Source: a virus. From it: 64,000 nucleotides of DNA. Position numbers and translations under genes: made by a program. The stretch is taken from the IMG/VR virus record IMGVR_UViG_3300046328_000321, positions 32,001 through 96,000 of that record, one strand, 5' to 3'. The notes below the pieces were generated by a model. It made no database searches, had not been told where the DNA came from, and saw nothing but the letters and a program-made list of their open reading frames with translations. Shown here piece by piece: positions 98 to 61,079 of the stretch; position 1 is the stretch's first letter; each line of letters begins with the position of its first letter.

Positions 98-206
98 TGA
101 ACATAAACATTCCCTTTATAACATATTTCAGCTATACATACTTTAACTGAGCTATTACAGTTTAAACTGATGTATCTGTCAGTACTGTTAATTAAAGGAG
201 ATAAAG
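98..206 (+). repeat. Dispersed cassette leader (promoter + hairpin + RBS); copies at ~825, 1384, 14056, 36100, 36322, 41107
   Basis: Shared atacttta(a/t)(c/t)tg(a/g)g(c/t)tattacagtttaaactgatgtatctgtcagtactgt...aaggagat (copies at ~825 and ~36100 are a variant). Confidence 0.9.
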
Positions 207-770
207 ATGACTATCGTTACTAATGAAAACGGTATCTTTTACTATAATGAAAAGGGTGAATATCACCGTGAGGATGGACCTGCTGTTGAATATCGAAATG
301 GTGATAAAGAATGGTATCTGAATGATAAGCTTCACCGGATCGATGGTCCTGCTGTTGAATATGCGAATGGTGATAAAGTATGGTTCGTTAACGGTAAACG
401 GCACCGGACCAATGGTCCTGCTGTGGAATATAGCAATGGTGATAAAATATGGTATGTCGATGGTCAGCGCCATCGTGTGGATGGTCCTGCTTTTGAAACA
501 TTAGGTGGTTATAAAGCCTGGTATCTGAATGATAAGGTCCATCGTCTCGACGGTCCTGCTGTCGAAGATGTGAACGGTTATAAAGCCTGGTATGTCAATG
601 ATCAATACCATCGCACAGATGGACCTGCTGTGGAAGATGTGAACGGTTACGGTTATAAAGCCTGGTATCTGCATGGTCAACGCCATCGTGTGGATGGTCC
701 CGCTATTGAGCGGGCGGATGGTACTAAAGAATACTGGGTTAACGATATTCAACAGGATCCACCTGTTTAA
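207..770 (+). CDS. HRxDGPA-repeat protein, cassette copy A (7 repeats of ~23 aa)
   Basis: Tandem HRx(D/N)GPAxExxxGxKxWxxxG units; AAGGAG RBS; conserved leader and terminator. Confidence 0.9.
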   Translation: MTIVTNENGIFYYNEKGEYHREDGPAVEYRNGDKEWYLNDKLHRIDGPAVEYANGDKVWFVNGKRHRTNGPAVEYSNGDKIWYVDGQRHRVDGPAFETLGGYKAWYLNDKVHRLDGPAVEDVNGYKAWYVNDQYHRTDGPAVEDVNGYGYKAWYLHGQRHRVDGPAIERADGTKEYWVNDIQQDPPV

Positions 771-780
771 CTGATATAAA

Positions 781-817
781 TATACACACAGCTTATTAGA
801 CTGTGTGTATTTTTTTG
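781..817 (+). terminator. Rho-independent terminator of cassette A
   Basis: tacacacag...ctgtgtgta hairpin followed by T-tract. Confidence 0.8.
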
Positions 818-915
818 TTCCTGTTTGTAAACTATCTCAATCACTTATACTTTATTTGAACTATCGCTGTAGTTTAATCCATACATCTTTGGAACTATCA
901 GCCAAGGAGATAGAC

Positions 916-1335
916 ATGACTGTGATTAAAAACCAGTATGGTACTTTTTATAGGAATGACGCAGATCAACTCCATCGTACCGATGGACCTGCTATCGAAT
1001 ACGCGAATGGTGATAAGCGTTGGCATCTGCACGGTCAGCTTCATCGTGAAGATGGACCTGCTGTGGAATATGTAGATGGTAGTAAATCATGGTTCGTTAA
1101 CGGTAAACGGCACCGGACCAATGGTCCTGCTGTGGAATCTGCAGATGGTTATAAAGCCTGGTTCGTCAATGGTCGACGACATCGTACTGACGGTCCTGCT
1201 GTGGAATGGGGAGATGGTAGTAAGTCATGGTGGGTCGACGATAAGCTCCATCGTGAAGATGGTCCTGCTGTGGAATATCCAGATGGTACTAAAGAATACT
1301 GGGTTAACGGTGTTAAACAAGATCCACCTGTTTAA
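916..1335 (+). CDS. HRxDGPA-repeat protein, copy B (5 repeats)
   Basis: Start reassigned to ATG 916 after AAGGAG; same repeat and KQDPPV C-terminus. Confidence 0.9.
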   Translation: MTVIKNQYGTFYRNDADQLHRTDGPAIEYANGDKRWHLHGQLHREDGPAVEYVDGSKSWFVNGKRHRTNGPAVESADGYKAWFVNGRRHRTDGPAVEWGDGSKSWWVDDKLHREDGPAVEYPDGTKEYWVNGVKQDPPV

Positions 1336-1344
1336 CTGATATAG

Positions 1345-1381
1345 ATATATACACAGCCTGATAAGCTGTGTATATTTTTTT
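1345..1381 (+). terminator. Cassette terminator
   Basis: atatacacagc-ctgataa-gctgtgtatat + T-tract; recurs near 14800, 36280 and (variant) 41695. Confidence 0.85.
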
Positions 1382-1477
1382 ACCTTTTATAACATATTTC
1401 AGCTATACATACTTTAACTGGGTTATTACAGTTTAAACTGATGTATCTGTCAGTACTGTTAATTAAAGGAGATAAAG

Positions 1478-1984
1478 ATGACTATCGTTACTAATGAAAA
1501 GGGTGAACTTCATCGTGAAGATGGTCCTGCTGTAGAATATGCACATGGTTATAAAGTCTGGTATCTAAATGGTAAGTTCCATCGTGAAGATGGTCCCGCC
1601 ATCGAATATGCGAATGGTGATAAGCGTTGGTACATTGAAGATAAGCTCCATCGTGAAGATGGTCCTGCTGTAGAAGGTGCAGATGGTTATAAAGCATGGT
1701 GGGTCAATGGTCAACGACACAGGATGGACGGACCCGCTATCGAATATCCAGATGGTAGTAAAACTTGGTATCTGAACGATAAGGTCCATCGTACAGATGG
1801 TCCTGCTGTAGAAGGTGTAGATGGTACTAAAGAATGGTGGATCGATGATCAACTCCATCGTGAAGATGGTCCCGCCATCGAATATCCAGATGGTACTAAA
1901 GAATACTGGCTCCATGGTTATAAAGCCTGGTTTCTGAAAATATTAAACAAAATATTAACCAGGTATTCTTGTTTTAAATTTTAA
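1478..1984 (+). CDS. HRxDGPA-repeat protein, copy C (6 repeats, rearranged C-terminus)
   Basis: Same leader as copy A; lacks the QDPPV end and runs into unrelated AT-rich sequence. Confidence 0.85.
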   Translation: MTIVTNEKGELHREDGPAVEYAHGYKVWYLNGKFHREDGPAIEYANGDKRWYIEDKLHREDGPAVEGADGYKAWWVNGQRHRMDGPAIEYPDGSKTWYLNDKVHRTDGPAVEGVDGTKEWWIDDQLHREDGPAIEYPDGTKEYWLHGYKAWFLKILNKILTRYSCFKF

Positions 1985-2046
1985 AACAAGAATTTTTTAC
2001 TTGGATTAACTTTAAGACAATTTAACTTTTATAAAGATAGTAAATC

Positions 2047-2952
2047 ATGAATATAAATGAAATTAATCCAAAACCTCTTATTCTTTTGACAAATGTTCAA
2101 GAGACAACCGTCAATACCGCTGTTAATAATGAGAAGAAATATGTCGCTAAATCGATTATTAACATGTTGGATAAACCAACATGTTGTATTGTATATAATC
2201 ATTTCAGTTTAGATGCCATGATGGCTGCTGCTGTTTATAAGACACAAACACCAGGTTCGGTTGTCTACAGTAGTATTAAACAAATACCCTCAGATATTGA
2301 TTTTTATATTGTTATTGGGATGCGTAAAGTTCAAAGTTTTTACAATCCCCTCAAACGTATTTTTAATTTTAATAATGCTAAATTAGACTACTCAGAAAAC
2401 ATAAAATGTTATTGGGTTGAAACAAAAGGACATGACTATATGTCAACACCTTCTTTATTTCATAAGGTCTGCGAAGAATTTGGTGTAGTTTCTGAAGTTA
2501 TTGATCAAATTAGTTATGCTGTTGGTCGGATTTATGAGAAGGATTTGACTTTGAGTCAATTAGTTCTGGTTTATGTGAATATGATGTTAGCACAAGCTGC
2601 TATCGTCGACACACGGCGTAACTATAAACCTCGCGATATTCTCAATGACGATAATACAATTCGAGGAACTGATATAGAAAACTTTCGTGCTTATGTGAAA
2701 GCAATTCAACACAAAGTCAACGGAAGCATCAACCTGAAATATTTTACAATCGGTAATAAAACGTATAAAACCATATTGACAAACATTACAGATGATTACT
2801 TTTGGTCCATGCGTTTGATTCGTATTGCTCACGAATATGTTGTGAATCTTGCAATAACACCTCGGGGTTATTTAATTGATAGTAACATTTCAGATGAAGA
2901 TTGTAAAAGCATTGAAGTTCAAATTGATTTTATAAAAGCTGAAACATTTTAA
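2047..2952 (+). CDS. Hypothetical protein, possibly degenerate DHH-like fold
   Basis: 301-aa ORF; YNHFSLDAMMAAAVY resembles DHH motif I but no DHH triad is visible. Confidence 0.5.
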   Translation: MNINEINPKPLILLTNVQETTVNTAVNNEKKYVAKSIINMLDKPTCCIVYNHFSLDAMMAAAVYKTQTPGSVVYSSIKQIPSDIDFYIVIGMRKVQSFYNPLKRIFNFNNAKLDYSENIKCYWVETKGHDYMSTPSLFHKVCEEFGVVSEVIDQISYAVGRIYEKDLTLSQLVLVYVNMMLAQAAIVDTRRNYKPRDILNDDNTIRGTDIENFRAYVKAIQHKVNGSINLKYFTIGNKTYKTILTNITDDYFWSMRLIRIAHEYVVNLAITPRGYLIDSNISDEDCKSIEVQIDFIKAETF

Positions 2953-3000
2953 TATAAAACATAATTCTACCTGACCTTATGGGTCAGGTAGAAGTTTGTT

Positions 3001-5133
3001 TTATATTTTTTTGTATTTTTTACTGTCTCGAATATTCTGTATCAGTTCATCAACAGACAATACCTTTTTATCTGCGTCTGTCAGATTAACGGCCAGATGT
3101 CTAAGTTTTTGTTCTAATCGATGTATCACATAAGGATCTTTTTCCATACGAATTTGATCAACTGTATTTTCAATCGTCAAACGTAATTGAGATTGCTGTT
3201 GCTGCTGTCTTATTTTAACAGGATCATTATCTTGATTATTTTGTTTGTTAGAAGACAAAATATCTCTGACATTAATACCATAATAAGAAAGACCCGTACC
3301 TTTGGTTATAAACCAGAATGACAGCAACCAAGTAATCACCAGGTCATCATGTCCTCCTTCAGCATGGTCGACTCTACCATTTCTAATAACTAAAGATAAT
3401 ATCTGATCAATTATCTTAACATCATATACACTATCTGATGTTAATCTAACAGCATTCTGTAAAGTGTTACTATAAAGATCTGTGCGACTGGTCAGTCCAG
3501 TACCAGAAGTAGTAAAACCAAAGTGTTTTTTATACTCTACAAGAAGATCAGGTAAAGCCAATAAATTATACCTAAGTAATTTCTCTATACGAGTTAAGTC
3601 CGTAGGGTCTTCTACAGATTTTTGTACGACTGTATTATAAAGTCTTTTAAATGGATTAATACCTTTAGTGGGTAACATCAATAATAAATAATCAATAATG
3701 GCTGATCCTGAAGATCTTCTTTCAATGATGCAGGTAAAGTTTTCATATTTGACAAACCATTCTACCAACCACTGAGCAAACATAATTAAATTGGTTTCGT
3801 TGTAGTTACCAGCAGCTATGACTTCCCCAGTTTGTATATCTCGCATTGTCAGTCCGATATCATCCCCACCGACAGCATCACTGGTATCTATAGCCATACT
3901 GTAATGCCCTCTTACCATTCTAGAGGAAATTTCATTCTCAGATATATACCATCTGGTTATGTAACCAAATTGCTGAGACATTTCAGCATAATGGTCTAAT
4001 CTTTCAGATTTACGTATTCTCTCAGATTGTTCCACTGATAATGGGGAAGTCAAACTACCGGATGTCCAAATATTAAAAAAATCACGATCCGCGTCCTCTC
4101 CTTTAGCACCGGTGATTTCTAATGTTTCTTTTAACCACTGATCGGTATAACCCAACTGTCTATGGTTAAACGTGCAGTTTACACGAGCCTCTCCTTTTGG
4201 AGAATTTCGTCGGATTATTTTATATAGATCATTTATATCTACAGCGTCTAATAGTTTTTCATTCCAAACAGCTGAACCTTGTACTAATTCGTGAGTAAAC
4301 TTACCGTCAGGGTCGTCTTTTTTACCTGACGTTGTGGTAAAAATATTACCATACGGCTCATTCTTTCTTTTAGCTAATGAACGTGCTGCTGTTGTGGATG
4401 CCAGTGCTGCTGGTAAGGTAATACTAATATTAGGTAAGAATGCTATTTCATCAACTTTAAATACAGGCGATGTCAAACCCCGTCCTACATTTAAAGCCAT
4501 TTTCATAGATTTATTCGGGAGGTGACCTTCGTAAGCATTATTCAGATTACCTACGACTAACTTCTCTGTATTGGATACATCCCCTCTTTTTCTTTGATTT
4601 AAATAAAAAGGTAACTCATCAATAATATCTTTTAACCGTATTAAGTTAGCAGATCGGAGTTTATCGTCTTTGGTTAACAAGTTAATCTTACCAAAAGTCA
4701 TGCCTATATTTAATAAATAGGTATCTAATACATCGGAAGAAAAAGATTTACCTGTTTGACGTGGTTGTATGAGAAACAGAGTTACATGATTAAAAAATAA
4801 CCATGGTAAAGCAATACCACCGCGATTAGCGCGATATGATATTGGATCTGAAATGGAACCTCCAGGTACTCTTACAATTTCTCGAAGATAGTACCAATAG
4901 TTAATTTTACATTCAAAAACTATAGCCGCCATGCGTTCCACAGTTAGATTAGCAAAGTCGTATGGATCGACTCCCTGTAATTCTGGGTTATGTAATGCTA
5001 AAACAAAAGCATGGTTCTTTATACCCATGTCTCTGTATAAAGCAGCCATTCTTAAAAATGAAACATTCTTAGTTTTATGATCGACTATCGCATCGGGATA
5101 GTTCTTCCAATCATCAGCAAACAGTATAGTCAT
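3001..5133 (-). CDS. terL: Terminase large subunit (phiKZ gp25-like)
   Basis: Walker A QPRQTGKS, Walker B VFKVDE, nuclease motifs AIDTSDAVGGD, IERRSSG and HDDLVI. Confidence 0.9.
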   Translation of the reverse strand: MTILFADDWKNYPDAIVDHKTKNVSFLRMAALYRDMGIKNHAFVLALHNPELQGVDPYDFANLTVERMAAIVFECKINYWYYLREIVRVPGGSISDPISYRANRGGIALPWLFFNHVTLFLIQPRQTGKSFSSDVLDTYLLNIGMTFGKINLLTKDDKLRSANLIRLKDIIDELPFYLNQRKRGDVSNTEKLVVGNLNNAYEGHLPNKSMKMALNVGRGLTSPVFKVDEIAFLPNISITLPAALASTTAARSLAKRKNEPYGNIFTTTSGKKDDPDGKFTHELVQGSAVWNEKLLDAVDINDLYKIIRRNSPKGEARVNCTFNHRQLGYTDQWLKETLEITGAKGEDADRDFFNIWTSGSLTSPLSVEQSERIRKSERLDHYAEMSQQFGYITRWYISENEISSRMVRGHYSMAIDTSDAVGGDDIGLTMRDIQTGEVIAAGNYNETNLIMFAQWLVEWFVKYENFTCIIERRSSGSAIIDYLLLMLPTKGINPFKRLYNTVVQKSVEDPTDLTRIEKLLRYNLLALPDLLVEYKKHFGFTTSGTGLTSRTDLYSNTLQNAVRLTSDSVYDVKIIDQILSLVIRNGRVDHAEGGHDDLVITWLLSFWFITKGTGLSYYGINVRDILSSNKQNNQDNDPVKIRQQQQQSQLRLTIENTVDQIRMEKDPYVIHRLEQKLRHLAVNLTDADKKVLSVDELIQNIRDSKKYKKI

Positions 5134-7962: not shown

Positions 7963-8457
7963 ATGAAAAAGCTGATCGCAATATTTGTTATATTACTCAC
8001 ACTCTTTCCCATGAAAGCAAGCGGTGATATAACAGAATACCTAAACGATCGCTGTGGTAAAAAATGTTTTCATGTTAACACCATGATTAATGAAGCTGTG
8101 CAAATAGCTTCGGAATCACATAAGGTTAATCCCGATGTGATAATCGCAGTGATGCAGGTAGAATCTAAATTTAATCCTAAAGCTGAAAACATGAGCAGCA
8201 AAGGACTGATGCAGGTGAACCTGAGGTATCATCGAAAAAAGTTCTCAGGAACTAATCCGTTTAACATATACGCTAACGTGTATGTAGGAACATCCATACT
8301 GAAAGAATGTATGGATAGAAGAGGGAATAACCTCACCAGAGCACTTAAATGCTATAATGGTGGTGGTGATCCCGGTTATGTGAAAAAAGTGATGACGGCT
8401 TTAAATAACGTCAGATCTCAAAAACTTATTGTAACACAAGGAAATCAAAATGGCTAA
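7963..8457 (+). CDS. Lytic transglycosylase (SLT domain) with N-terminal signal or anchor
   Basis: AVMQVESKFNPKA (catalytic E), SKGLMQV, ALKCYNGG; hydrophobic N-terminus. Confidence 0.9.
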   Translation: MKKLIAIFVILLTLFPMKASGDITEYLNDRCGKKCFHVNTMINEAVQIASESHKVNPDVIIAVMQVESKFNPKAENMSSKGLMQVNLRYHRKKFSGTNPFNIYANVYVGTSILKECMDRRGNNLTRALKCYNGGGDPGYVKKVMTALNNVRSQKLIVTQGNQNG

Positions 8458-9427
8458 GCAAAACACAATCGCAGTTTACGGTGCCGGTGGCTTTGGTATC
8501 AATATCGCAAGTCAATTTACTCGATTTGTTGGTAAGACAGATCCTGGTTTCGCTAAGATCATGCCTTACTTTATTGATACTAGCAAATCTAATTTGTTGG
8601 AAAGTGTTCCGCCTAACACATATTTGGTAGAAGGACTTGATGGTTCAGGTAAATTGCGTAATAGTAATTACGGTATAATTTCTGAAAAGAGTAAAGAAAT
8701 CTTGCATCAATTCCGTCCTGGTGATGTGAATGTAGTCGTACATTCAGGAGGTGGAGGATCAGGATCAGTGATTGGTCCAGTTCTTGTCAGCGAGTTGTTG
8801 GCTCGTGGTGAAACTGTTATTGTGTTGATCGGTGGTTCTACTTCATCTCGCATTGAAACAGAGAATACTAAAAAGACTTTGCAATCTTACGAAGTGATCT
8901 CACAAAGACGTGACAAACCTGTCATTTGTTTCTATCGTGAAAATACCAAAGATACTCCTCGTGGCGTTGTAGATAATCAGATGCAAGTAGCAGTTGTTGT
9001 GTTGGCAGCTATTTTCTCTGGTGCTAATCGGGAATTGGAATCTGCTGACTTGAGTAATTGGATCAACTATAATAAAGTGACAAGTTATTCTCCTAAACTT
9101 AATCTTCTAGAATTCCATTCTGGTGATGTGAAATTGGGTAAGGGTCAATCTCTGATCTCTTTGGCTACTTTGACAGATGACAATCACATCTCTGACATCG
9201 ACACACCTGTCGAATATCAGTGTGTAGGATACGTTGGCGAACAAGCTCAGAAAGCTATTTCCATGGAGATGCCTATTCATGCTTGTATTGTCGGCGGTGT
9301 CTTCAATGAAACGGTTAATCGTCTTGAAGAAAAAATTGCTGTGTTTGACGAAATTCGTGCTGTGGTGGTAGAGAAATCTATTATCAAATCCAACACTGTG
9401 TCTACCGATGATGGTTTGATCTTCTAA
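8450..9427 (+). CDS. phuZ: PhuZ phage tubulin
   Basis: YGAGGFGINI, FIDTS, GSGK, tubulin signature GGGSGS, acidic C-terminal DDGLIF tail. Confidence 0.92.
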   Translation: MAKQNTIAVYGAGGFGINIASQFTRFVGKTDPGFAKIMPYFIDTSKSNLLESVPPNTYLVEGLDGSGKLRNSNYGIISEKSKEILHQFRPGDVNVVVHSGGGGSGSVIGPVLVSELLARGETVIVLIGGSTSSRIETENTKKTLQSYEVISQRRDKPVICFYRENTKDTPRGVVDNQMQVAVVVLAAIFSGANRELESADLSNWINYNKVTSYSPKLNLLEFHSGDVKLGKGQSLISLATLTDDNHISDIDTPVEYQCVGYVGEQAQKAISMEMPIHACIVGGVFNETVNRLEEKIAVFDEIRAVVVEKSIIKSNTVSTDDGLIF

Positions 9428-14058: not shown

Positions 14059-14163
14059 ACATAAACATTCCTTTTATAACATATTTCAACCACTTATACT
14101 TTATTTGGGTTATTACAGTTTAAACTGATGTATCTGTCAGTACTGTTAATTAAGGAGATGAAG

Positions 14164-14790
14164 ATGACTATCGTTACTAATGAAGAATGTACCTTTCATT
14201 ATAATGAAAAGAATGAGCTCCATCGTGAAGATGGACCTGCCATCGAAGATACAGATGGTTATAAAGCATGGTGGGTTAACGGTAAACGACACCGGACCAA
14301 TGGACCTGCTATCGAAGGTGCGGATGGTAGTAAGTCATGGTGGGTTAATGATCAACGCCATCGTACAGATGGACCTGCTGTGGAATATGTAAATGGTGAT
14401 AAACTATGGTTTGTTAATGATCAGCGCCATCGTGTGGATGGTCCCGCTGTCGAATATAACAATGGTTATAAAGCCTGGTATGTCGATGGTCAGCGTCATC
14501 GTGTGGATGGTCCCGCTGTCGAAGAAGCAGATGGTGGTAAAGTATGGTATCTGTATGGTCAACGACATCGTGAAGATGAACCTGCTGCAGAAGGTGCCAA
14601 TGGTAGTAAGTCATGGTGGGTTAACGGTCAACGACACCGGATCGACGGTCCTGCTGTAGAGCGAATAGACGGCCATAAAGAATGGTTCGTTAACGGTGAA
14701 CCCCATCGTGTAGATGGTCCCGCCATCGAATACCCAGATGGTACTAAAGAATACTGGCTCCATGGTGTTAAACAGGATCCACCTGTTTAA
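14164..14790 (+). CDS. HRxDGPA-repeat protein, copy D (8 repeats)
   Basis: Leader nearly identical to copy A; KQDPPV end; cassette terminator ~14800-14837. Confidence 0.9.
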   Translation: MTIVTNEECTFHYNEKNELHREDGPAIEDTDGYKAWWVNGKRHRTNGPAIEGADGSKSWWVNDQRHRTDGPAVEYVNGDKLWFVNDQRHRVDGPAVEYNNGYKAWYVDGQRHRVDGPAVEEADGGKVWYLYGQRHREDEPAAEGANGSKSWWVNGQRHRIDGPAVERIDGHKEWFVNGEPHRVDGPAIEYPDGTKEYWLHGVKQDPPV

Positions 14791-14841
14791 CTGATAGATA
14801 TATACACAGCCTGATAAGCTGTGTATATATTTTTTTTACCT

Positions 14842-38880: not shown

Positions 38881-38966
38881 ATATTGACACCTTACCACCT
38901 GAAAGGGTGGTAAGGTGTCTTCATCTTATTTTATATCTCAGTTCTATCGTTTGATAAGGAGTGAAT

Positions 38967-41090
38967 ATGTCTAGTAATCCATTTTTGAAATCAGCAGATG
39001 AATATGATAGGGATATAGATCCTATCAAACATTATATTTCCCAATCAGCTTATTTTCTTCATAAGCAAAAAGGTAAATCCATAGCCTACTATGAGGAACA
39101 GCTAAGGAAAAAACTGTTTGATGGTTCTATTCCAGATATACGTAACCCCACCGTAACTCATTACGAACGTGGAGAAAATGGTGACCGTTATGTTACCAAA
39201 TCAGGTCTTTATCAATATATCACCGGTGTGCAAAAAACCAATAGAATCATAGCTCCTACATTCACTACATATTTATCATCCAAGGAACAACCTTCTATTC
39301 TTGTAGACTTTGTAGACGATAACGTAGCTGGTAGGTCTAAATCTAAGAAAGAAGCATTTGTTGCTAAAACAGATGGTAACATGGTGCTGTTTGCCATCAA
39401 AGATAATGAACAGAATAATAAGAAGACTTATAATAACTCTTTGTCTGGTGCTTTTGGATCTAAGGGTTCACCTTTTTATAACCCAACAGCCCACAGTACT
39501 TTAACCAGCACAGTCAGAACAGAAAGTTCATTAGGTAATGCACTCAATGAAAAAATCGTAGCTGGCAGTAGACATTATAAAGACATCCAAACTACTTTAA
39601 ACAATGTGATTACACTTTCAATGAGTGTGGATCAAGAGTTTAAAAATACTATTCATAAATACAAATTACACATGCCTACAATAGATGAGACCATGGATTG
39701 TATTCAGTACTCATCTAAGTTGTATTGGTTAGACAGCAGAGGTACTGCCTCTATACGCAGATTAGTAGAAAAATTAGATGGATATGAAAGAGCTGCTGTG
39801 GTTTATATCAGCGATCTTTATCATATTCGTAAACATAATGAAAATTTCATCAGACAATTTTTGTTCAGAATATCCAGGAAAATTACTGATAAAATTTATG
39901 ACGAACCCATTAAAGTCATCCATAATCTTGATGAAAGCTTTGTAAATTACGGACATCAGATATGTCAGACAGAGATGAGAGGGTTTGGTAAGAAATATAA
40001 TGAACTTTCTTTAGAATCTGTTAATACCGTAGCTGCTACTTGTGTGAACATAAAAACAATAGTGGATGAATATCTAGATTTCATAAGAAGTTTTTTTCTA
40101 ACTAATAACGTACCTGCTAGTACAGCATTTATACCCAACATGATGCGTAGAGCTGTGGTTCTAAGTGACACAGATTCCACCATGTTTTCAGTAGATGATT
40201 ATGTGCAATGGTATTTTGGCGAATTGTGTTTTCACGATGAGGCTTTTGCAATAGCAGGTGCTGTAGTTTTTTTGGCTACTCAATGTATCGCGCATACGTT
40301 GGCTATTTTTTCTTCCAACATGGGTGTGGATAAGAAAAAGCTTTTTCAGATAGCTATGAAACCAGAGTTTGTGTTTCCTGTATTTGCCCAAACACCTGTA
40401 TCTAAACATTATTTTACTTTTAAAACCATTCAAGAAGGTAATGTTTATAAGAAACCAGATTTTGAAATCAAAGGTGTGCATCTGAAAAATTCCGCTTCCC
40501 CAGTGGAAGTGATTAAAGATGCCACAGGTTTGATGGAGAAATTACTTTTAGATATTTACGCAGGTAAGAAAATTAGATTGGCTGAAGTGATTAAACATAT
40601 AGCCGATCTAGAAAAAACCATTATTAAATCTTTGCTTACTGGTGAGGTTACTTATTATAAGAGAAGTAAAGTCAAATCCAAAGAAAGTTATTCTCAAGAT
40701 GAGGATCAGTCTAATTTTAAATGGCATAAATTTTGGCAACTTGTTTTTCAACCTACATATGGTGAAATACCCCTACCACCTTACAGTGTTTTGAAAGTAC
40801 CAACCACAGTGACCAATATCACTGGGTATAAAGAGTGGTTAGATAAGATAGATAACGATTCTTTTAAGCAAGCTTTAATGGGATGGATGGCATCCCGTAA
40901 TAAAGTAGATTTACCTACTTTATATATACCCATGGATTATGTATTAGCTAGAGGTATGCCTAAAGAAGCTTTGGCTGTGTTAGATGCAGAAAAAATTGTA
41001 TTGGATCTTACAAGTACGTATAGACTTATATTAGGCAGTTTGGGATTTTACGGTAAAACAAACATGTCTTTGACAGCTCAAGGTTATTAA
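38967..41090 (+). CDS. Family B DNA polymerase catalytic subunit (phiKZ gp50-like)
   Basis: KTYNNSLSG (motif B), VVLSDTDSTMF (motif C), MKPEF, KHY, EIKGVHLK. Confidence 0.85.
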   Translation: MSSNPFLKSADEYDRDIDPIKHYISQSAYFLHKQKGKSIAYYEEQLRKKLFDGSIPDIRNPTVTHYERGENGDRYVTKSGLYQYITGVQKTNRIIAPTFTTYLSSKEQPSILVDFVDDNVAGRSKSKKEAFVAKTDGNMVLFAIKDNEQNNKKTYNNSLSGAFGSKGSPFYNPTAHSTLTSTVRTESSLGNALNEKIVAGSRHYKDIQTTLNNVITLSMSVDQEFKNTIHKYKLHMPTIDETMDCIQYSSKLYWLDSRGTASIRRLVEKLDGYERAAVVYISDLYHIRKHNENFIRQFLFRISRKITDKIYDEPIKVIHNLDESFVNYGHQICQTEMRGFGKKYNELSLESVNTVAATCVNIKTIVDEYLDFIRSFFLTNNVPASTAFIPNMMRRAVVLSDTDSTMFSVDDYVQWYFGELCFHDEAFAIAGAVVFLATQCIAHTLAIFSSNMGVDKKKLFQIAMKPEFVFPVFAQTPVSKHYFTFKTIQEGNVYKKPDFEIKGVHLKNSASPVEVIKDATGLMEKLLLDIYAGKKIRLAEVIKHIADLEKTIIKSLLTGEVTYYKRSKVKSKESYSQDEDQSNFKWHKFWQLVFQPTYGEIPLPPYSVLKVPTTVTNITGYKEWLDKIDNDSFKQALMGWMASRNKVDLPTLYIPMDYVLARGMPKEALAVLDAEKIVLDLTSTYRLILGSLGFYGKTNMSLTAQGY

Positions 41091-41195
41091 ACCATATTCA
41101 CTCCTCTTCTAGACTATTTTAAGTATACATACTTTATTTGAGCTATTACAGTTTAAACTGATGTATCTGTCAGTACTGTATATAAGGAGATGAAG

Positions 41196-41684
41196 ATGAC
41201 TGTAATTACAAACCAGTATGGTACCTTTCATTATAATGAAAAGGGTGAATATCACCGTGAAGATGGTCCTGCTATAGAAGGTACCAATGGTGATAAAGCC
41301 TGGTATCTGAACGGTAAACTTCATCGCACAGATGGTCCTGCTGTCCAAGATGTGAGTGGTACTAAAGAATGGTGGGTCAACGGCAAACGGCACCGGATCG
41401 ACGGTCCTGCTATTGAAACATTAGGTGGTTATAAAGCCTGGTTCGTTAACGATCAACGACATCGTACAGATGGTCCTGCTGTCGAATATGTAAATGGTGA
41501 TAAAACATACTGGGTCAATGATCAACACCATCGTGAAGATGGACCTGCTGTGGAAGGTGCGGATGGTTATAAAGCCTGGTATCTGAACGGTAAACTTCAT
41601 CGTACAGATGGTCCTGCTGTAATATGGATAAATGATTATAAACAATACTGGGTTAACGGTGTTAAACAAAACCCACCTGGTTAA
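41196..41684 (+). CDS. HRxDGPA-repeat protein, copy G (6 repeats)
   Basis: Cassette leader ~41107-41195, KQNPPG end, terminator ~41694-41733. Confidence 0.9.
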   Translation: MTVITNQYGTFHYNEKGEYHREDGPAIEGTNGDKAWYLNGKLHRTDGPAVQDVSGTKEWWVNGKRHRIDGPAIETLGGYKAWFVNDQRHRTDGPAVEYVNGDKTYWVNDQHHREDGPAVEGADGYKAWYLNGKLHRTDGPAVIWINDYKQYWVNGVKQNPPG

Positions 41685-41736
41685 CTGATATAAATATACA
41701 CACAGCTTATCAGGCTGTGTGTATATTTTTTTTGTT

Positions 41737-43921: not shown

Positions 43922-45757
43922 ATGGCTATCATTCACGACGACAAAATCACCACCTCTGCTCCTAAGGTACAAGACCAGCATGTTAATACCAACACTGCTG
44001 CCGTACAGCGTAATAGCTGGAACTTTGGTTCCGGTGGTAATATTTTTGCGGCACCTATTGGTCGCAGTATCGGTTCAGAAGTTTACAACGAGCTGAAAGG
44101 TTCGCTGATTGAGATTTATAAGAATGCTCAAAGTGATGCGTCTATCTCCATCTTGGACATGGATAATCAAAACGAAAGTGCTCTTGCATTTTCATGTCTG
44201 ATTGTTGCCATGCGGTTGAAGAACGTCCCCAATAAGGTTGCATATCACATTCTGATGTTGGAAGCTACCGGTGAACGTCCAAATCCAGTAATCCAATATA
44301 ATGGATCTAAGCAGATTGAACTACATCGTACTGCCGGCGATGCGATCGATGATATCCTTATTGGTAAGGCAAAGAGTATTGTTCAACGTGCATTTCCTTC
44401 TCATGAAACCCATTATACCGACACCACTGTCGTACCAGCGGGTTTCAATATGAAGGACAAAGCGGCTGTATACAAGTTGGCGTTGAATGCTGGTCTAGCC
44501 AACGGTACCGAATTGGAAACTTCTTCCAACACGTTCCAGGATCTGAATGTGAGTCAGATTCCCCAAGGTCAGCAATTGGTAGTGAACATGACCTTCGGGT
44601 CCACACCCATCGCCGATGATGTCGGTAACCTGATGCGTTCTGACTTCCAATTGAGCTTTGCTGCACAAAACAGTAAAGCTCAAAACAATCAGTCGTTGAA
44701 CAGTGGGGGTCGTGAGACTCGTATTGCTGACGTGGCTGGTTTTGTGGAAATGCTTTGGGCACCTGTGGAACCCATGGTCAATCCATACATGCCTGTGCAA
44801 CAACGACAGACACAGAAATTTGCTGCTCGTTCTGTCATCACCAGCATGACTTCTACACACAGCTATACTCCTGGATCTATGCTGTTGGCTGTGGCTATGT
44901 TGGACGCTTTGGCTCTCCATAATAACTATTACCAAGTCTTCCGTCCCTCTATGACGAAAGATCTGGATATTCGTGATGTGGGTGCCCTGAATATTGAAGG
45001 TAACTACGATAACAACCCAACCGGTGTGTCGTCTGTACTGGATACCAAGTCCTCCAGCTTCTCTCATGAGAACCTGGGTATGTTCTTGAATGCTTTAGTG
45101 CGTCCTGGTATGTTGGTGGCTATCGATTGTCCAGTCGGCGGTGCTCAATCTTGGTATACAGGTCTGTACGATGCAGCTTCCACTCGTGGTGGTTCTGCCT
45201 ATGACATCTTATACACAGCTGCGCAAGAACTGACGAATGGTAACTTTGCTCGTTTGTTCCCCAAGGGTGCACAGATGTTCTTGGATGCGGGTAATCGTAT
45301 TCATACGGGTATCTATACTGATCGCCAAGGTGCTCAGCGTGATATTCGAGATATCGACTATCTTGCAGCAGCAAACATTCTGGGTGCTAATAACGTGCAA
45401 GCGTTGCGTCAGTACACTGAAACATTCTGGAATCAGAACATCAGCTTGGCTGAGCGTTTGTCGGATCGTAAGCGTATGATTTCCAGCATGACCAACGAGA
45501 CTGCTACTTTTACCGGGTATGCAAATCGAGTTACTTTTTCTGGTACTTTCATCGAAGCACTACGTAAAGGTATCCAGGCATGTAACATGAATGTACGGAT
45601 CAACAGTCCGATGAGCGGTGCAGATTTCAACGCTCAACGCGGCGTTGCAACATTTGCTAACGCAGGTCTGATTGTACCTACCGGTTCGTTCATGGGTTTT
45701 GGCATTGCTCCTCAACACATGCAAAACATGATGCACATGGGTGGTTACCGCTATTAA
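43922..45757 (+). CDS. chmA: Chimallin (phage nuclear shell protein, phiKZ gp54-like)
   Basis: 611 aa, immediately upstream of the nvRNAP beta-prime gene, own promoter and terminator, codon bias suggesting high expression; co-occurs with PhuZ. Confidence 0.8.
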   Translation: MAIIHDDKITTSAPKVQDQHVNTNTAAVQRNSWNFGSGGNIFAAPIGRSIGSEVYNELKGSLIEIYKNAQSDASISILDMDNQNESALAFSCLIVAMRLKNVPNKVAYHILMLEATGERPNPVIQYNGSKQIELHRTAGDAIDDILIGKAKSIVQRAFPSHETHYTDTTVVPAGFNMKDKAAVYKLALNAGLANGTELETSSNTFQDLNVSQIPQGQQLVVNMTFGSTPIADDVGNLMRSDFQLSFAAQNSKAQNNQSLNSGGRETRIADVAGFVEMLWAPVEPMVNPYMPVQQRQTQKFAARSVITSMTSTHSYTPGSMLLAVAMLDALALHNNYYQVFRPSMTKDLDIRDVGALNIEGNYDNNPTGVSSVLDTKSSSFSHENLGMFLNALVRPGMLVAIDCPVGGAQSWYTGLYDAASTRGGSAYDILYTAAQELTNGNFARLFPKGAQMFLDAGNRIHTGIYTDRQGAQRDIRDIDYLAAANILGANNVQALRQYTETFWNQNISLAERLSDRKRMISSMTNETATFTGYANRVTFSGTFIEALRKGIQACNMNVRINSPMSGADFNAQRGVATFANAGLIVPTGSFMGFGIAPQHMQNMMHMGGYRY

Positions 45758-45916: not shown

Positions 45917-48748
45917 ATGCCTGTCATACAGGAAATCATTCAGTTTGATGATATGTTTCATAAACTACATCACACACCTACTCTTATTAACCACATAGCT
46001 TGCGCCACATTGGAAGATAGGGAGAAGGTAAAAGAAATTCTTACCACTCATCTTAACAGTGATCAGATAAGTTTAGTACCTTCATGTCAATGCGGAGCTA
46101 CTAAAGGTGAATATTCCAAGAGTATGGTTTGTCCCGTCTGTAATACAGAAGTAAAAACTTCTGTGACTACAGATATCGAACCAGTAGTCTGGCTGAAGCA
46201 ACCAGAGAGTGTGGATAAGTTGATCAGTCCTATCTTTCTGATGATGTTAATCAAAAGGTTTACCAAATCAGGATTCTCAGTGATCGAATGGTTATGTAAT
46301 ACAAATTACTCTTCGACATCTAAACCTCCTGATAAAGTATTAGCTAAAATCCAGACATGTGGGATTGAACGAGGTTATAACAACTTCGTTAGGAATTTTG
46401 ATCCTATTATGGATTTGTTGTTTTCATTCATTGAGTTTGCTCCTAAAACTCAAAAGTTTGAAATGAAACAAGAAGACAAAATAGATCATTTACAACAACT
46501 AATCAGAGATCACAGAAACGCGATCTTTAGTGAGTATTTACCCATCCCAAATAAGATCATTTTGATCTTTGACACCCAGCCATTAGGGACTTATACTGAT
46601 CCTTCAGTAATGAAAGCTGTGGATGCTATTAACACAATGGTGTCCATTGATCGAGATTTCTATGATCAGAGTTCAAAAACCAAACAGAACCGTACGATCA
46701 AAGCTTTGATGTTACTTTGTGATTTTTATAACGATACCTTATTGTTAATGGCACATAAGCATGGTCATTTCCGTAAGCACATGTTTGGTAGTAGAACCAA
46801 TTTTTCTTTCCGAGCTGTAATCACATCGATTACAGCCGGTAAGAATTATGATGAGATCGAAGCTCCATGGTGTATGGCAATCACAGCATTCCGTATTCAT
46901 TTGTTGAATAAACTTTTGAAATACGGTATGGGTCATAACGAAGGGTTAGGATTTTTGTATAAACATACGTACAAACACCATTCTCTTCTGGAAAGATTCA
47001 TGCAGGAGATGATTGATGAGACCCCAATGAAAGGTATTTTCATTTGTTTGCAACGCAATTAACTATTTAGGTTGCCTTTATCAGTAATGGTAAAGTAAAA
47101 TTCTCCTTAATTGACGGGAACATCCTGCTAAAAACTTGTACACCAAACTACAATAGAAATATATGTAGCGGCCAAGGTAACTACTTGGGTATGGTAAAAG
47201 AAACAAGTCTGGGATAATCCGCAGCCGAACTCTTAACCAGAAATGGAAAGAGATGGGTTCAACGACTAGTCGAAAGACGTAACTCTTAGCAAGAGTGAAA
47301 CAGGAGACCCCTTTTGTATAAAAGGGTGAAGATATAGTCTGCTCTCGTATGAATAATACGAGCGGGTGTCGTAGCACACCGGGTAAAGAGAGTAAGCTGT
47401 TTAAGCTGAGCGACTTTACTGGACAATGGCCGAGTTTGTTACAAGGGTCAGCTCAACGAGTGAAAATCACAAAGTTCAAAACTAACCCTATGGACTTGAC
47501 TATAGGGATGCACATCTTAACAGTGCGTGCTAATCATTATTGGCATTTAACCAGGTAACTGGTTAAAGAATCTCTTCGAATTGCTGGAAACTCCTTAGAG
47601 TCTCATTACCACTGCGAGCTGTAAAGCAAAGCCACGGTTTAAAAAGTATGAGAATTGGACAATCAGCAGCGAAACTTCCTACGGGAAGTACGTTCAACGA
47701 TCATCGGAGTTACGCCCGAGTAGAACCTCAAGCGAGGAAGAAGTGGAGAGCACCCTACTATTTATGAGGGTGAAGATATGATCTGTTCCTGTATGAAAAT
47801 ACAGGCGGGTGTCTTAGCACACCGAGTAAAGAGAGTAAGCTATTATAGCTGAGCGGCTTTACTGGACAATAAGCCAAATGCTGATCAAAAGGTCCTCTTA
47901 ACTTGCGAAGGTTAAGATGTATTTCCTGAATTGCTGGGAACTCTCGTTAGACTGTTGAACTAAAGCGGAGTGTGAAAACACAAACGTAAATGTTTGAAAA
48001 TCAGCAGGTAGAGACAATCAGCAGCTAAGACGCTAAAGACAGTTGTGAAACTGGCTATGCGTAAAGTTCAACGACTATCCGGTAGCACGGAGTAGACCCA
48101 TGAGGGTCAAAGTAGGAAACGTCTCTAGGAAGACGGTGATATAGTCTGCTCTCACATGAGAATGTGAGCGGGTGTCAAAGCACACCGGGTGAGGAATCGA
48201 AAGATGGCTTCACTGGACAAAAGGTTTGATGGTAGAGTATTGCCATCTCTAAACATTCTTAACTGCGGGAAACTCCTTAGAGCTTTGTTGACCAACCTGT
48301 GGTAGAAATACACACAGCGGCTGAACTAACTATTCAGATATGGTAAAACTAACAAAGATTGGACAATCCGCACCGAAGCTCCTAACTAAGTATATTAACA
48401 TATACTTACATGGAGTGTGGCCAACGACTATCCCGTAAGGGAGTACACTCAAGCGAGTGGAAACAGAATGTACCGAAAGGTAAAGATATAGTCTAATCAG
48501 ATATGAAAGTATCTGGATCCTTAAGCAAGATCGATGAGTAGTAGCGTACTCAGGTTGGTGCTAGAGAGTTATGGTTTATGGATGCTCTCAACGTATCCAT
48601 AGCTCTTGATCAGAAAATGTCAGATATGTGGTATCCACTTTCACCGGAGTTCAACATCTTCCAAATGACAAAACCATTTCAAGTATCGGGAAACATAGCG
48701 ATCCCTAAACCTAACATCGCTACCATTTCATCTTGGTTGGAAAACTAG
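45917..48748 (+). CDS. rpoC: nvRNAP beta-prime N-terminal subunit (phiKZ gp55-like), 5 exons: 45917-47059, 47430-47531, 47874-47885, 48225-48233, 48581-48748; 477 aa spliced
   Basis: Zinc finger CQC..CPVC, FRKHMFGSR, FRAVI; splicing restores QRNPSL and PNADFDGD in frame. Confidence 0.92.
47060..47429 (+). ncRNA. Group I intron 1 (370 nt, no ORF)
   Basis: P1 gcaau/guugc with U.G; P aattgacgggaa, Q aatccgcagc, R gttcaacgacta, S aagatatagtct; terminal G. Confidence 0.92.
47532..47873 (+). ncRNA. Group I intron 2 (342 nt, no ORF)
   Basis: P1 ugcu/ggca; P aattgctggaaa, Q aatcagcagc, P7 gatca/tgatc (compensatory variant); terminal G. Confidence 0.92.
47886..48224 (+). ncRNA. Group I intron 3 (339 nt, no ORF)
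   Basis: P1 gau/guc; P aattgctgggaa, Q aatcagcagc, R gttcaacgacta, S gatatagtct; terminal G. Confidence 0.9.
48234..48580 (+). ncRNA. Group I intron 4 (347 nt, no ORF)
   Basis: P1 gauggu/gccauc; P aactgcgggaaa, Q aatccgcacc, R ccaacgacta, S aagatatagtct; terminal G. Confidence 0.92.
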
Positions 48749-58106: not shown

Positions 58107-58610
58107 ATGAACATCTTTGTTCTGGATTTAGATCCTAAGACATCAGCAAGATATTTGTGTAATGAACATTGCTGTAAGATGGTTGTGGAATCCGCTCAAA
58201 TGTTATCTACAGCACACAGACTTAAGTCAGATGACACAGACGGACTTTACAAATTAGCTCACATCAATCATCCATCTACTATTTGGACCAGAGAATCGGT
58301 AGAAAATTACTTGTGGCATTATGAATACTTTTGCTATATGGCAGAAGAGTATGAGGAACGTTATGGTAAGATTCATTTAACATACATGATGTTAAAGAAC
58401 AGACTTCAGTTACCTCCAGAGAAAATAACGGAAACTAAAAGGACTCCGTTTACTTTGTGTATGCCGGAAATTTATAAACAGGACGATCCCGTTCAAGCTT
58501 ATAGAGCTTTTTATATAGGTGAAAAACTTAAGTTTGCTCACTGGTCTTTACCATCAACAATACCATCATGGATCATCAAACACGTAAGGAACAATCATGC
58601 AGAACAATGA
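58107..58610 (+). CDS. Pyrimidine-dimer DNA glycosylase / DenV-related protein
   Basis: MNIFVLD...H..KM.VESAQMLSTAH, YKLAHINHPS.IW, RYGKIH, VQAYRAFY. Confidence 0.75.
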   Translation: MNIFVLDLDPKTSARYLCNEHCCKMVVESAQMLSTAHRLKSDDTDGLYKLAHINHPSTIWTRESVENYLWHYEYFCYMAEEYEERYGKIHLTYMMLKNRLQLPPEKITETKRTPFTLCMPEIYKQDDPVQAYRAFYIGEKLKFAHWSLPSTIPSWIIKHVRNNHAEQ

Positions 58611-61079
58611 ACTGAAACTTCAATATGTGGGTATACAAGGACTTAATTCTTACTGTATGCATAATTCATCATCACGAGCTGTGATGTTTTCTTCTCACAT
58701 TGGACAACGTCTGGTAATTGAAGGAGCTCAACAGAAACTTGTACAAACTGGGCTTGAACAAGAATTTGGTAAATATACGTTCAATGTCAAGATGCCTGAG
58801 AATGGTCGTATTGTTGCTATCTTAGACAGGTATCCTCGTGGTGTAGGTAGTAAATCTCTTAATTTCAATCCAGAGACCTATGTCTTCTTTGAACGTGAAG
58901 ACAACAAGCAAGTAGATTATATTCTCATCCCGTACAAAGCTCAGTTCCATCAGAATTTTGGTTTTAAGTACAAGATGAATAAGAAAAATATCGGAAAGCT
59001 TCAGCCAGGTGCTTATATTGCAAAAGATACTATTTTTGCAGACAGTCCTGCTGTTTCTGACAATGGTAATTTCATGTTTGGTATCAATGCCAACATTGCC
59101 CTGATGTCCATTCCCTCAGTGGCTGAAGATGGCATTATGATCTCCAGAGACTTTCTACCTAAGTTAAAGTTCAAGATTTATGATACTCGACAAGTCAACT
59201 TTGGATCTAAACAATTTCCATTGAACCTTTATGGTACTTTGGATGAAGTAAAACCATTTCCTGAGATCGGAGATAAGATTCGAGAAGATGGTATTTTGAT
59301 GGCTTTTAGAGACTTTAACACAGCTCTGTCTCCTGTTGAAATGTCTAAGATGGATTTAATGGAAGTAGATCACACTTTTGATGAATGTGTATATGTACGA
59401 GGTGGTGTGGGTACTGTGGTTGACATTAAGATTACCAGAAACAACTCACCTATTAAGAACATGCCTGTGGAAATGTCATGTTATCTGAACCGTTACTGGG
59501 AAGCCAATCAAGCTTTTTATAAGAAAGTTATTGATTTAGAAGCCGGTCTGCGTAAAGATAACCGAATGAAATTTGGAACCACTGATATTTTAACAACATC
59601 AAAGTTTGATAAATTAGTTTATGAGGCTATGGTGCATACTAACCATAACTTCAATCAGTTTAAACAACCTCTTCAACTCCAATCACGTAAGTCTACTGTA
59701 GACGAATACCAGATACAATTTACTATTGAATACACCATTGAACCCTGTGAAGGATTCAAATTGACTGATAATCACGGTTTTTACTAGCCGCTTTTGACAG
59801 AGATGTCAATCGATCATTTTCCTAATTGCGGGGAACCACCTAAAGCTTCATTGACCAACTTAGTTACGAAAGTAAGTTAAGGGCTACGCTAACTACGTAG
59901 GTATGGTAAAACTAATGAAGATATATGGGCAATCCGCACCGAAGCTCCTAACTAAGTATATTAACATATACTTACATGGAGTGTGGCCAACGACTATCCC
60001 GTAAGGGAGTAGGCTCATGAGAGTCGAAATGGAAAGCGTCCTACTGTTGAACAGAGGATGAAGATATAGTCTGTTCCTACATGAAAGTGTGGGTGGGTGT
60101 CACAGCACACCGGGTGAAGAATCGAAAGACGGCTTCACTGGACAAAAAGGGAAAAGGTGTTATTTGTAAAGTAGAAGAACCTGAGAACATGCCTGTCGAT
60201 GAAAATGGCAACCGTGCCGACATCGTCATGGATGCAGCTTCTACTATCTCACGTATGAACTTAGGCAGGCTTTACGAGCAACACATGGCATCTGCCTTGC
60301 GCGACGTTACTCAAAATGTTCGCATGTTGTTTGGATTTGAACGATTGAAACCAACATCCATTAAAGCTGAGAATTTGCTAGACAGTTTTCCAATTCAAAA
60401 GATCGAAGAAGCTCATCAGTACGTGTTAGGTTTCTATAACCTTATTTCAGAAAAGCAATATAACTTTTATTCTAAACTGACAGATCCTAAGCAAATTGCC
60501 GAGCATATCTGTGATATCATATCCGATCACGTTTATGCATATATTCCTATTGATAAACAGATCAGTAGTAAAGATATCGTGAAACGCATCGAGAATTCCA
60601 TATACAAACCCGTTTATGGAAAAATTACCTATCGAGGTAATTCTGGTGAGGTCGTGCTTACTGAACGAAATGTGCGCATTGCTCCTTTATACATGATGTT
60701 ATTGGAAAAAATCGCTGATGATTGGACAGCTGTAGCCACTGGTAATCTTCAGCTACATGGTTTACTGGCTCAGGTCAACAGACGTGAAAAGCATTCAAGA
60801 CCTCATAGGAACACTCCTGTTCGCACCATCGGTGAAACAGAGGGACGTTTATTTGTAGGTTATTGTGGAAGAGAAGCGGTCGCTGAGATGTTGGATCGTT
60901 CAGGTAATCCTCTTGTACAAAGACACATGACTAGGAACATTCTTGAAGCCAATCGTCCAACAAATATCAATGAGATTGTAGATCGTAACTTGGTTAACTA
61001 CGGTAATACCAAGTCTGTACAGATCATCAACCATATGTTTACTTGTATGGGTTTTAAAACCAAATACGTTCCAGAATGA
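58597..61079 (+). CDS. rpoB: nvRNAP beta subunit (phiKZ gp71-73-like), exons 58597-59778 and 60150-61079; 703 aa spliced
   Basis: NSSSRAVM, AEDG, spliced GFKLTDNHG-GKGVI, SRMNLGRLYE, GETE. Confidence 0.92.
59779..60149 (+). ncRNA. Group I intron 5 (371 nt, no ORF)
   Basis: P1 cggu/gccg; P aattgcggggaa, Q aatccgcacc, R ccaacgacta, S aagatatagtct; terminal G. Confidence 0.92.

Follow-up and report, generated by a model that had tools for sequence, protein, structure and literature searches.

Within a 64,000-nucleotide (nt) stretch of a viral genome (the window; bases 32001-96000 of the 113,368-bp IMG/VR virus contig IMGVR_UViG_3300046328_000321, CheckV completeness 43%), we find six members of a family of small genes assembled from 69-nt repeats, each repeat encoding a 23-residue unit with an HRxDGPA core. 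The virus is a divergent nucleus-forming jumbo phage, a chimallivirus (Chimalliviridae), as it encodes chimallin, PhuZ, RNA polymerase subunits, a DNA polymerase, and TerL. The repeat genes are mosaics of shared units, their products are predicted to adopt a MORN-like fold, and most of the genes sit in a standard expression cassette; this descriptive part (gene set, fold, mosaic structure, and cassette) can be stated with high confidence. The explanation that on balance best accounts for the whole is that the genes form an expanded, mosaic family of MORN-like binders, probably expressed early and used in takeover. Coordinates are window positions unless marked as genome positions.

Repeat genes and their unit

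The HRxDGPA-core pattern CAYMGNNNNRAYGGNCCNGC has 32 matches in the window, falling into six clusters all on the plus strand, and none in 100 shuffles. The clusters correspond to the following genes, whose coordinates and unit numbers (7, 5, 6, 8, 1, and 6) match exactly those given for six copies in a preliminary description of this DNA made from the sequence alone:

Gene A, 207-770, plus strand: 187 amino acids (aa); N-cap, seven units, and a QQDPPV cap, with a two-residue GY insertion in unit 6
Gene B, 916-1335, plus strand: 139 aa, five units
Gene C, 1478-1984, plus strand: 168 aa; shortened N-cap, six units
Gene D, 14164-14790, plus strand: 208 aa, eight units; the protein that was modelled
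Gene E, 36411-36554, plus strand: 47 aa; N-cap and one degenerate last unit
Gene F, 41196-41684, plus strand: 162 aa, six units

The genome-wide count of copies proposed in that description was run on the contig, and gives 12 repeat genes and 57 units, all on the plus strand, with six of the genes outside the window and 12 being a minimum for the phage; these 57 units are the ones compared throughout. The first and last repeat genes are cut by the contig ends, leaving ten complete genes, and the assembly thus broke within the family at both sides. Tandem Repeats Finder reports a period of 69 or 138 nt, and successive HRxDGPA motifs lie 23 aa apart in 43 of the 45 intervals, the other two measuring 25 aa, a period of the MORN type.

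Across the units, H1, P6, A7, and K15 are invariant (57/57), R2 and G5 are each present in 56 and G13 in 55, and position 17 is W in 45 and Y in the remainder; D4 and E9 are likewise fixed or nearly fixed, such that the unit signature is HRxDGPAxExxxGxKxW. Entropy exceeds 2 bits only at positions 3, 10, 11, 14, 16, and 23, with position 22 at about 2 bits, bearing out the earlier observation that variation is concentrated at a few positions per unit while the HR..GPA and G.K.W framework stays fixed. The units are preceded by an N-cap, MTIVTNExGTFHYNEKGE, which is a degenerate half-repeat, and final units are followed by a C-terminal cap, (V/I)(K/Q/E)Q(D/N)P(P/S)(V/G). Gene C has lost its C-cap: after ...EYWLHG it continues mid-unit with GYKAWF and then 17 unrelated residues. 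Gene E is either a minimal or a decaying copy. The predicted products are 5 to 24 kDa and hydrophilic (grand average of hydropathy about -1), with predicted pIs of 5.4-6.5 and one of 8.9, together with one 44-kDa fusion. In the gene designated gN (genome 21412-22557, outside the window) the repeats are fused to a 190-aa N-terminal domain (genome 21412-21981) that is predicted to contain a long helix (single-sequence AlphaFold2 predicted local distance difference test [pLDDT] about 30), and for which we found no Pfam match and no homologue among 5.8 billion proteins.

The predicted fold is MORN-like

An AlphaFold2 model of the gene D protein, built on 48 paralogues and homologues (pLDDT 96.9, predicted template modeling score 0.85), is composed of short strands and turns in a strict 23-residue periodicity, and supports a MORN-like, single-layer beta-hairpin sheet. 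The top Foldseek matches of the model among solved structures are MORN1, junctophilins, radial-spoke proteins, and MORN4 (E values down to 2e-8), and alignment with VIA-align gives Z scores of 10.7 for MORN1, 10.6-10.8 for the MORN-type matches, and 9.6 for the CPAP G-box, which is another single-layer sheet. In a wide search independent of Foldseek, five chains scored Z of at least 8, among them MORN1, junctophilin-2, and a radial-spoke protein; the remaining two are both axonemal and are presumably also MORN-type. Viral structural matches include proteins of uncultured Caudovirales and MORN proteins of giant viruses. The proteins had previously been regarded as solenoids, and although a repeat fold is upheld, the model gives a MORN-like single-layer sheet and not a closed solenoid.

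Sequence-level membership of the MORN family was considered and rejected, although the fold is MORN-like, as both the MORN signature YxGxWxxGKxHGxG and the Pfam model are unmatched: neither MORN (PF02493) nor MORN_2 (PF07661) has a match in four repeat proteins at E ≤ 0.1, nor anywhere on the contig at E ≤ 1. A search of PDB chains with the family profile returned no match, and a single-protein search likewise gave nothing useful. The sole Pfam model to score above its cut-off of 27 bits is DUF6745 (PF20530), with 46.6 bits for B and 47.2 bits for C, and with A just below (26.8 bits). The matches cover about 30 of 206 positions (profile positions about 50-86), corresponding to one or two repeats embedded in the model, and no complete DUF6745 domain is present. 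In NCBIfam, A and D are without a family and gN has one subthreshold match; PHROGs offers solely unnamed short families for the repeat genes, and domain-model searches found no catalytic domain in the repeat proteins.

Repeat genes are mosaics of shared units

We conclude that the repeat genes are mosaics because their units do not cluster by gene, because compatibility between sites decays with distance, and because the tracts shared between genes are longer than in permuted data. Mean nucleotide identity is 0.680 for units within genes and 0.685 for units of different genes, and the best match of almost all units lies in a different gene, with the order of matches being noncollinear; the five units of gene I, for example, best match units of five different genes in a different order. 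When the 57 units are placed in a maximum-likelihood tree, 44 changes of gene label are required compared with 42.3 after shuffling, and the strict clustering by gene that had been named beforehand as the outcome contradicting a shared repertoire is not seen. In contrast, the first/middle/last label requires nine changes versus 19.3 when shuffled (none of 300 shuffles being as low), and the last units form one clade (Shimodaira-Hasegawa-like approximate likelihood ratio test support, 99). Unit order is also in conflict between genes, as the type represented by A2 and D7 precedes that of A3 and D4 in gene A and follows it in gene D.

A pairwise-incompatibility test of the pairwise homoplasy index (PHI) type shows that compatibility falls with distance (codon-block permutation, P < 0.001 up to 3 codons), with linkage decaying over about 10 nt. 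Added together, the ten longest exact tracts shared between genes reach 448 nt, whereas 300 permutations that preserve the identity of each unit pair give a mean of 340 nt and at most 427 nt (P < 1/300). The longest shared coding tract (66 nt) links gene A with a gene outside the window, and an exact 50-nt tract is common to genes A and B (380-429 and 1089-1138). The latter includes the 48-nt block reported in the preliminary description as shared between distant copies (382-429 and 1091-1138; 48/48 identical), and the other examples of such patchwise sharing were also reproduced, with the 27-mer GAAACATTAGGTGGTTATAAAGCCTGG at both 495 and 41415 and the final units of C and D being 94% identical. 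The PHI-type test and the tract-length test each reject a nonrecombining history, in line with the recombination proposed in the preliminary description.

The synonymous codons used at fixed residues are narrower than genome usage; the R2 codon is CGT in 77% of units compared with 28% genome-wide, and is never AGA. This fits with common descent, homogenization, or both. At one junction outside the window, gene I reads via GTTTAACTGAT at its stop codon into the 5' untranslated region (UTR) of gene J, which starts GTTTAAACTGAT (genome about 97595-97645), and the intervening terminator and promoter are missing; this run-through and the loss of the gene C cap both fit recombination at short homologies. 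We note that cassettes are bordered by imperfect direct repeats of these two sequences, with GTTTAACTGAT spanning the stop codon and GTTTAAACTGAT within the 5'UTR:

Copies of the border across the stop codon: 765-775, 1330-1340, 14785-14795
Copies of the border in the 5'UTR: 160-171, 1431-1442, 14118-14129, 36366-36377, 41151-41162

Mechanistically, 69-nt units of different genes would recombine in register by unequal crossing-over or gene conversion, with the near-invariant CATCGTGAAGATGGTCCTGCT segments supplying the homology for unit exchange, and the short direct repeats at the cassette borders, GTTTAA(A)CTGAT, would recombine too.

Repeat genes lie in standard expression cassettes

Most of the repeat genes would be autonomous transcription units, each comprising a promoter-like box, a 5'UTR stem-loop, a Shine-Dalgarno sequence, the open reading frame (ORF), and a family-specific intrinsic terminator. 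A 52-nt box whose consensus is C-TTTGTAAA-TATTTCAGT-ACATATACTTTA-TTGAG is located upstream of every repeat gene in the window, in these leaders:

Leader A, 105-206, plus strand: box 105-156 (position weight matrix [PWM] score 52.0), hairpin 157-188, and Shine-Dalgarno sequence
Leader B, 814-915, plus strand: box 814-865 (PWM score 58.1) and variant hairpin 861-913 (minimum free energy -14.1 kcal/mol, z -2.8)
Leader C, 1376-1477, plus strand: box 1376-1427 and 5'UTR hairpin 1428-1459
Leader D, 14063-14163, plus strand: box 14063-14114 and 5'UTR hairpin 14115-14146
Leader E, 36311-36410, plus strand: box 36311-36362 and 5'UTR
Leader F, 41096-41195, plus strand: box 41096-41147 and 5'UTR hairpin 41147-41180

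Near-identity of the leaders, as described previously, holds for A, C, and D, which are 86-90% identical over 102 nt, but not for E and F, which are only 68-78% identical to A, or for B, whose variant 5'UTR places it outside the leader repeat family. The stem-loop between the box and the Shine-Dalgarno sequence has three compensatory pairs across nine leaders; the changes are of C-G to U-A, and gene B has a different inner stem.

The PWM for the box was constructed from 21 hand-picked plus-strand sites, all of which it recovered together with four more. The 25 matches on the contig are all on the plus strand, with none on the minus strand, a bias partly built in by taking the seeds from the plus strand; each match lies 30-110 nt before an ORF. 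Eighteen are in the window:

Box sites, plus strand: 7893, 14864, 16882, 17304, 19022, 24685, 26083, 35678, 45860, 53203, 58066, and seven in cassette leaders

The box is not confined to the repeat family, as it precedes, among others, the RNA polymerase gene adjoining chimallin (45860) and the transglycosylase-PhuZ operon (7893), and a weaker version is present upstream of chimallin itself. A sigma-70 reading of the box was considered and rejected, as the leaders gave no sigma-70-like site in a simple scan and chimalliviruses use their own polymerases (PMC10914365). The phiKZ virion polymerase uses about 32 conserved AT-rich promoters to transcribe early genes (PMC10914365), and by analogy the box probably represents an early promoter class. 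Early expression of the repeat genes, as suggested in the preliminary description, is thus reasonably likely, with the box shared with the polymerase gene by chimallin and with the PhuZ operon providing indirect support and the timing taken from phiKZ.

A 29-nt terminator hairpin with a T-run is present in nine copies, seven of which are identical at 29/29 positions, and eight follow family genes. The terminators are mostly shared, as noted before, being found 3' of A, B, D, and F:

Terminator A, 782-810, plus strand: variant stem with compensatory changes, T-run
Terminator B, 1347-1375, plus strand: family hairpin
Terminator D, 14800-14828, plus strand: family hairpin
Terminator F, 41696-41724, plus strand: variant stem

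Genes C and E are the exceptions and are without a family terminator, and gene C has a hairpin terminator of its own (about 1966-1998). The ninth copy belongs to a cassette in which an unrelated mini-ORF takes the place of a repeat gene:

Mini-ORF cassette, 36088-36308, plus strand: box, 5'UTR hairpin, and family terminator

The mini-ORF (36192-36272) has a GTG start and encodes 26 hydrophobic aa; it may specify a small membrane peptide, or the cassette may have had its content replaced. Two unrelated small genes located 3' of repeat genes (genome 98005-98431 region) have leaders that are near-identical over about 120 nt; a leader shared by unrelated small genes indicates that expression cassettes are swapped independently of what they carry. 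Conservation is highest in the terminator (87%), followed by the UTR and the last unit plus cap (both 82%), the N-cap (75%), and the internal units (68%).

Proposed role and alternative explanations

The phage displays this family as independently transcribed and mutually recombining genes amid the takeover genes of a nucleus-forming phage, a location that suggests a role in interaction with the host or with the phage itself. We propose that the repeat proteins act noncatalytically, binding host or phage proteins or serving as adaptors for them while the cell is being taken over. A stoichiometric binder function is predicted and seems fairly probable, given that homologues are fused to other domains, that the proteins are hydrophilic and mildly acidic, and that no catalytic domain is matched; a DNA-mimic role was considered unlikely, as the proteins are merely mildly acidic (pI 5.4-6.5). 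A specifically counter-defense role is putative and rather doubtful. Nothing ties the repeat family to host defense: no paper was found, in a PADLOC search A, D, and F had no match, and the N-terminal part of gN had one weak match to an orphan methyltransferase (E = 0.0026) that is not credible.

Several observations weigh against the family being an early-expressed set of diversified binders. At variable positions the ratio of nonsynonymous to synonymous polymorphism (pN/pS) rises from 0.61 in the closest unit pairs through 0.76 in intermediate ones to 1.03 at saturation, values that fit neutral drift and do not call for selection of new specificities, and no ratio of nonsynonymous to synonymous substitution rates (dN/dS) above 1 was found. 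These values reflect relaxed constraint and carry no diversifying signal, and the repertoire of diversified binders envisaged in the preliminary description is to that extent not borne out. The same positions are variable in the consensus of the whole wider family, and the variability may merely be what the fold tolerates. Some copies look decayed, with a single unit in E and the cap lost from C; the promoter class is termed early solely by analogy with phiKZ; and, with the metagenome assembly breaking at repeat genes at both ends, some of the mosaic joins may be chimeras.

The strongest alternative is a neutral accordion, in which a dispensable, readily duplicated, moron-like cassette grows and shrinks through homologous recombination, with no selection favoring diversity; a single generic function may be common to all the proteins, or they may be of little consequence. 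The variable-site pN/pS values are consistent with this, as are the truncated or degenerate appearance of copies E and C, the occupation of the same cassette by the unrelated 26-aa mini-ORF, and the better conservation of the flanks (terminator, 87%; UTR, 82%) than of the interior units (68%). However, strong purifying selection acts on the scaffold codons of every copy (pN/pS 0.01-0.15), from which it follows that these are real coding genes maintained as folded proteins; all ten complete genes are open and keep their own start signals, although the upstream region of gene H differs. Moreover, multicopy arrays recur in unrelated phage contigs, suggesting that copy number itself is retained. 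We regard the neutral accordion as unlikely.

A less probable alternative places the proteins in the cell biology of the phage, as adaptors for the chimallin shell, the PhuZ spindle, the early membrane vesicle, or the selection of phage-nucleus cargo. Eukaryotic MORN proteins act as scaffold, membrane-junction, and cytoskeleton adaptors, and the fold resembles that of junctophilins, MORN1, and axonemal scaffold proteins; in addition, the repeat genes lie among the chimallin, PhuZ, and RNA polymerase genes and have a promoter class in common with them, and one paralogue has the extra 190-aa N-terminal domain. Nonetheless, a tblastn search with gene C matched no cultured chimallivirus, so the family cannot belong to the conserved nucleus machinery, and the repeat is also present in small podoviruses and bacteria. 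This alternative appears improbable.

The least probable explanation is that the mosaic is in part an assembly artefact, a short-read assembler having threaded chimeric paths through paralogous 69-nt units: although the contig terminates inside family genes at both ends, exact tracts (45-66 nt coding, about 80 nt within leaders) have lengths comparable to those of assembler k-mers, and five paralogues lack an exact match in the protein collection whereas their flanking genes are found on two to five contigs, the ten complete genes are assembled through with unique flanks, chimeric joins would not create a linkage decay of about 10 nt, which is far under k-mer size, and independent contigs of other phages contain similar arrays.

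Returning to a binder family used in takeover, its most specific form would be a recombination-fed library, in which each combination of paralogues neutralizes a different host defense or toxin protein, and in which in-register exchange during replication keeps yielding new paralogue combinations within the population; we consider both parts of this proposal to be speculative and improbable. As the repeat also forms multicopy arrays in other phage contigs, such a library may be widespread in uncultured phages. If the paralogues do bind different targets, they would constitute a new natural source of small beta-sheet binders and a new class of phage takeover or counter-defense proteins, and a true binder library would be the viral equivalent of repertoires built from cassettes, such as vls or VLR. 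If the targets do not differ, the family is still a clear case of short repeats and standard cassettes driving the turnover of a phage gene family.

Relatives of the repeat family and comparison with known systems

The HRxDGPA repeat is among the larger uncharacterized families, with 26,030 representative clusters matched at E ≤ 0.001 and 13,142 at E ≤ 1e-10, and we found no structure and no paper for it; literature searches on DUF6745, MORN repeats in jumbo phages, and multigene families of Chimalliviridae returned no relevant paper. In a collection clustered at 90%, 7,794 of 8,000 scored candidates matched (E ≤ 0.001), and among the 120 matches listed almost all are unnamed; DUF6745 is precomputed on most homologues, and one homologue bears the Joint Genome Institute name 'antitoxin component YwqK'. 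The closest ESM Atlas clusters are 77-100% viral. In long cellular homologues the repeat is fused to kinase, phosphatase, HEAT/LRV, and pentapeptide domains, as expected for a generic binding module. Among cultured phages, the only tblastn matches of gene C are in Celeribacter phage P12053L (in the left-end small-gene region) and Agrobacterium phage Atu_ph07, and there is one match in an uncultured phage; all are annotated as hypothetical proteins. A 77-kb viral contig (35% GC) has four tandem paralogues of the repeat with four to six units each (L016, positions 1529-4193), with a common C-terminal ...ELSVAEIEQLLGYK(V/I)K(I/V)V tail, and a group of contigs with 57% GC (L019-L021) has two tandem paralogues of the same repeat with a different tail.

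The closest structural parallel is with MORN proteins such as MORN1, junctophilins, MORN4, and RSP1/RSP10, which like the phage repeat have a 23-residue period, one hairpin per repeat, and an elongated single-layer antiparallel sheet, and which are nonenzymatic protein-binding scaffolds, as is proposed for the phage proteins. They differ in signature (YxGxWxxGKxHGxG versus HRxDGPAxExxxGxKxW), with no sequence-level match, and in that known MORN proteins are eukaryotic and cellular, whereas those described here are phage genes and putatively early. The bacterial YwqK/MORN_2 proteins (PF07661, COG2849) likewise consist of beta-hairpin repeats with a similar period. Proteins of the YwqK type serve in immunity, binding toxins and thereby neutralizing them, and MORN2 families are reportedly expanded in invasive Fusobacterium; however, no toxin partner gene adjoins any phage copy, and the MORN_2 model is unmatched.

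Giant-virus repeat families (the MORN, ankyrin, and F-box families of pandoravirus and mimivirus, and the multigene families of African swine fever virus) likewise have many paralogues per large viral genome, are shaped by duplication and recombination, and are presumed to interact with the host. The present family differs in residing in a bacteriophage, in having tiny genes each in a standard promoter-hairpin-terminator cassette, and in that unit-level mosaicism is demonstrated statistically. Borrelia vls, Neisseria pilS, Anaplasma msp2, and lamprey VLR share with it a conserved framework with variable patches and the swapping of tracts between dispersed copies, but these systems have one expression site, silent donors, and programmed high-rate conversion; the phage copies each have a promoter, and nothing indicates a programmed mechanism or a high rate.

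Phage identity and neighboring genes

The genes that identify the phage as a chimallivirus are as follows:

Chimallin, 43922-45757: phrog_4795; top tblastn match Burkholderia phage FLC9, 34% identity
PhuZ tubulin, 8450-9427
Multisubunit RNA polymerase pieces, 45917-47062, 58597-59787, 60081-61079, and 61087-63093
DNA polymerase, 38961-41090
TerL, 3001-5133, minus strand

A megablast search of cultured phages with 6 kb of the phage gave zero matches, a scan of viral contigs with a TerL peptide pattern recovered no relative, and the exact 5'UTR and terminator DNA patterns are absent from the viral and metagenome contigs scanned. A metagenome scan with the dCTP deaminase adjacent to gene D identified only relatives of about 40% identity, and those are without repeat genes. 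The neighbors of the repeat genes include the dCTP deaminase, the DNA polymerase, other family members, and unnamed small genes. Adjoining gene E, an ORF at 36727-37572 matches phrog_4285 ('transposase'; E = 4e-29) and is without a Pfam family; a mobile element may have disrupted the gene E locus.

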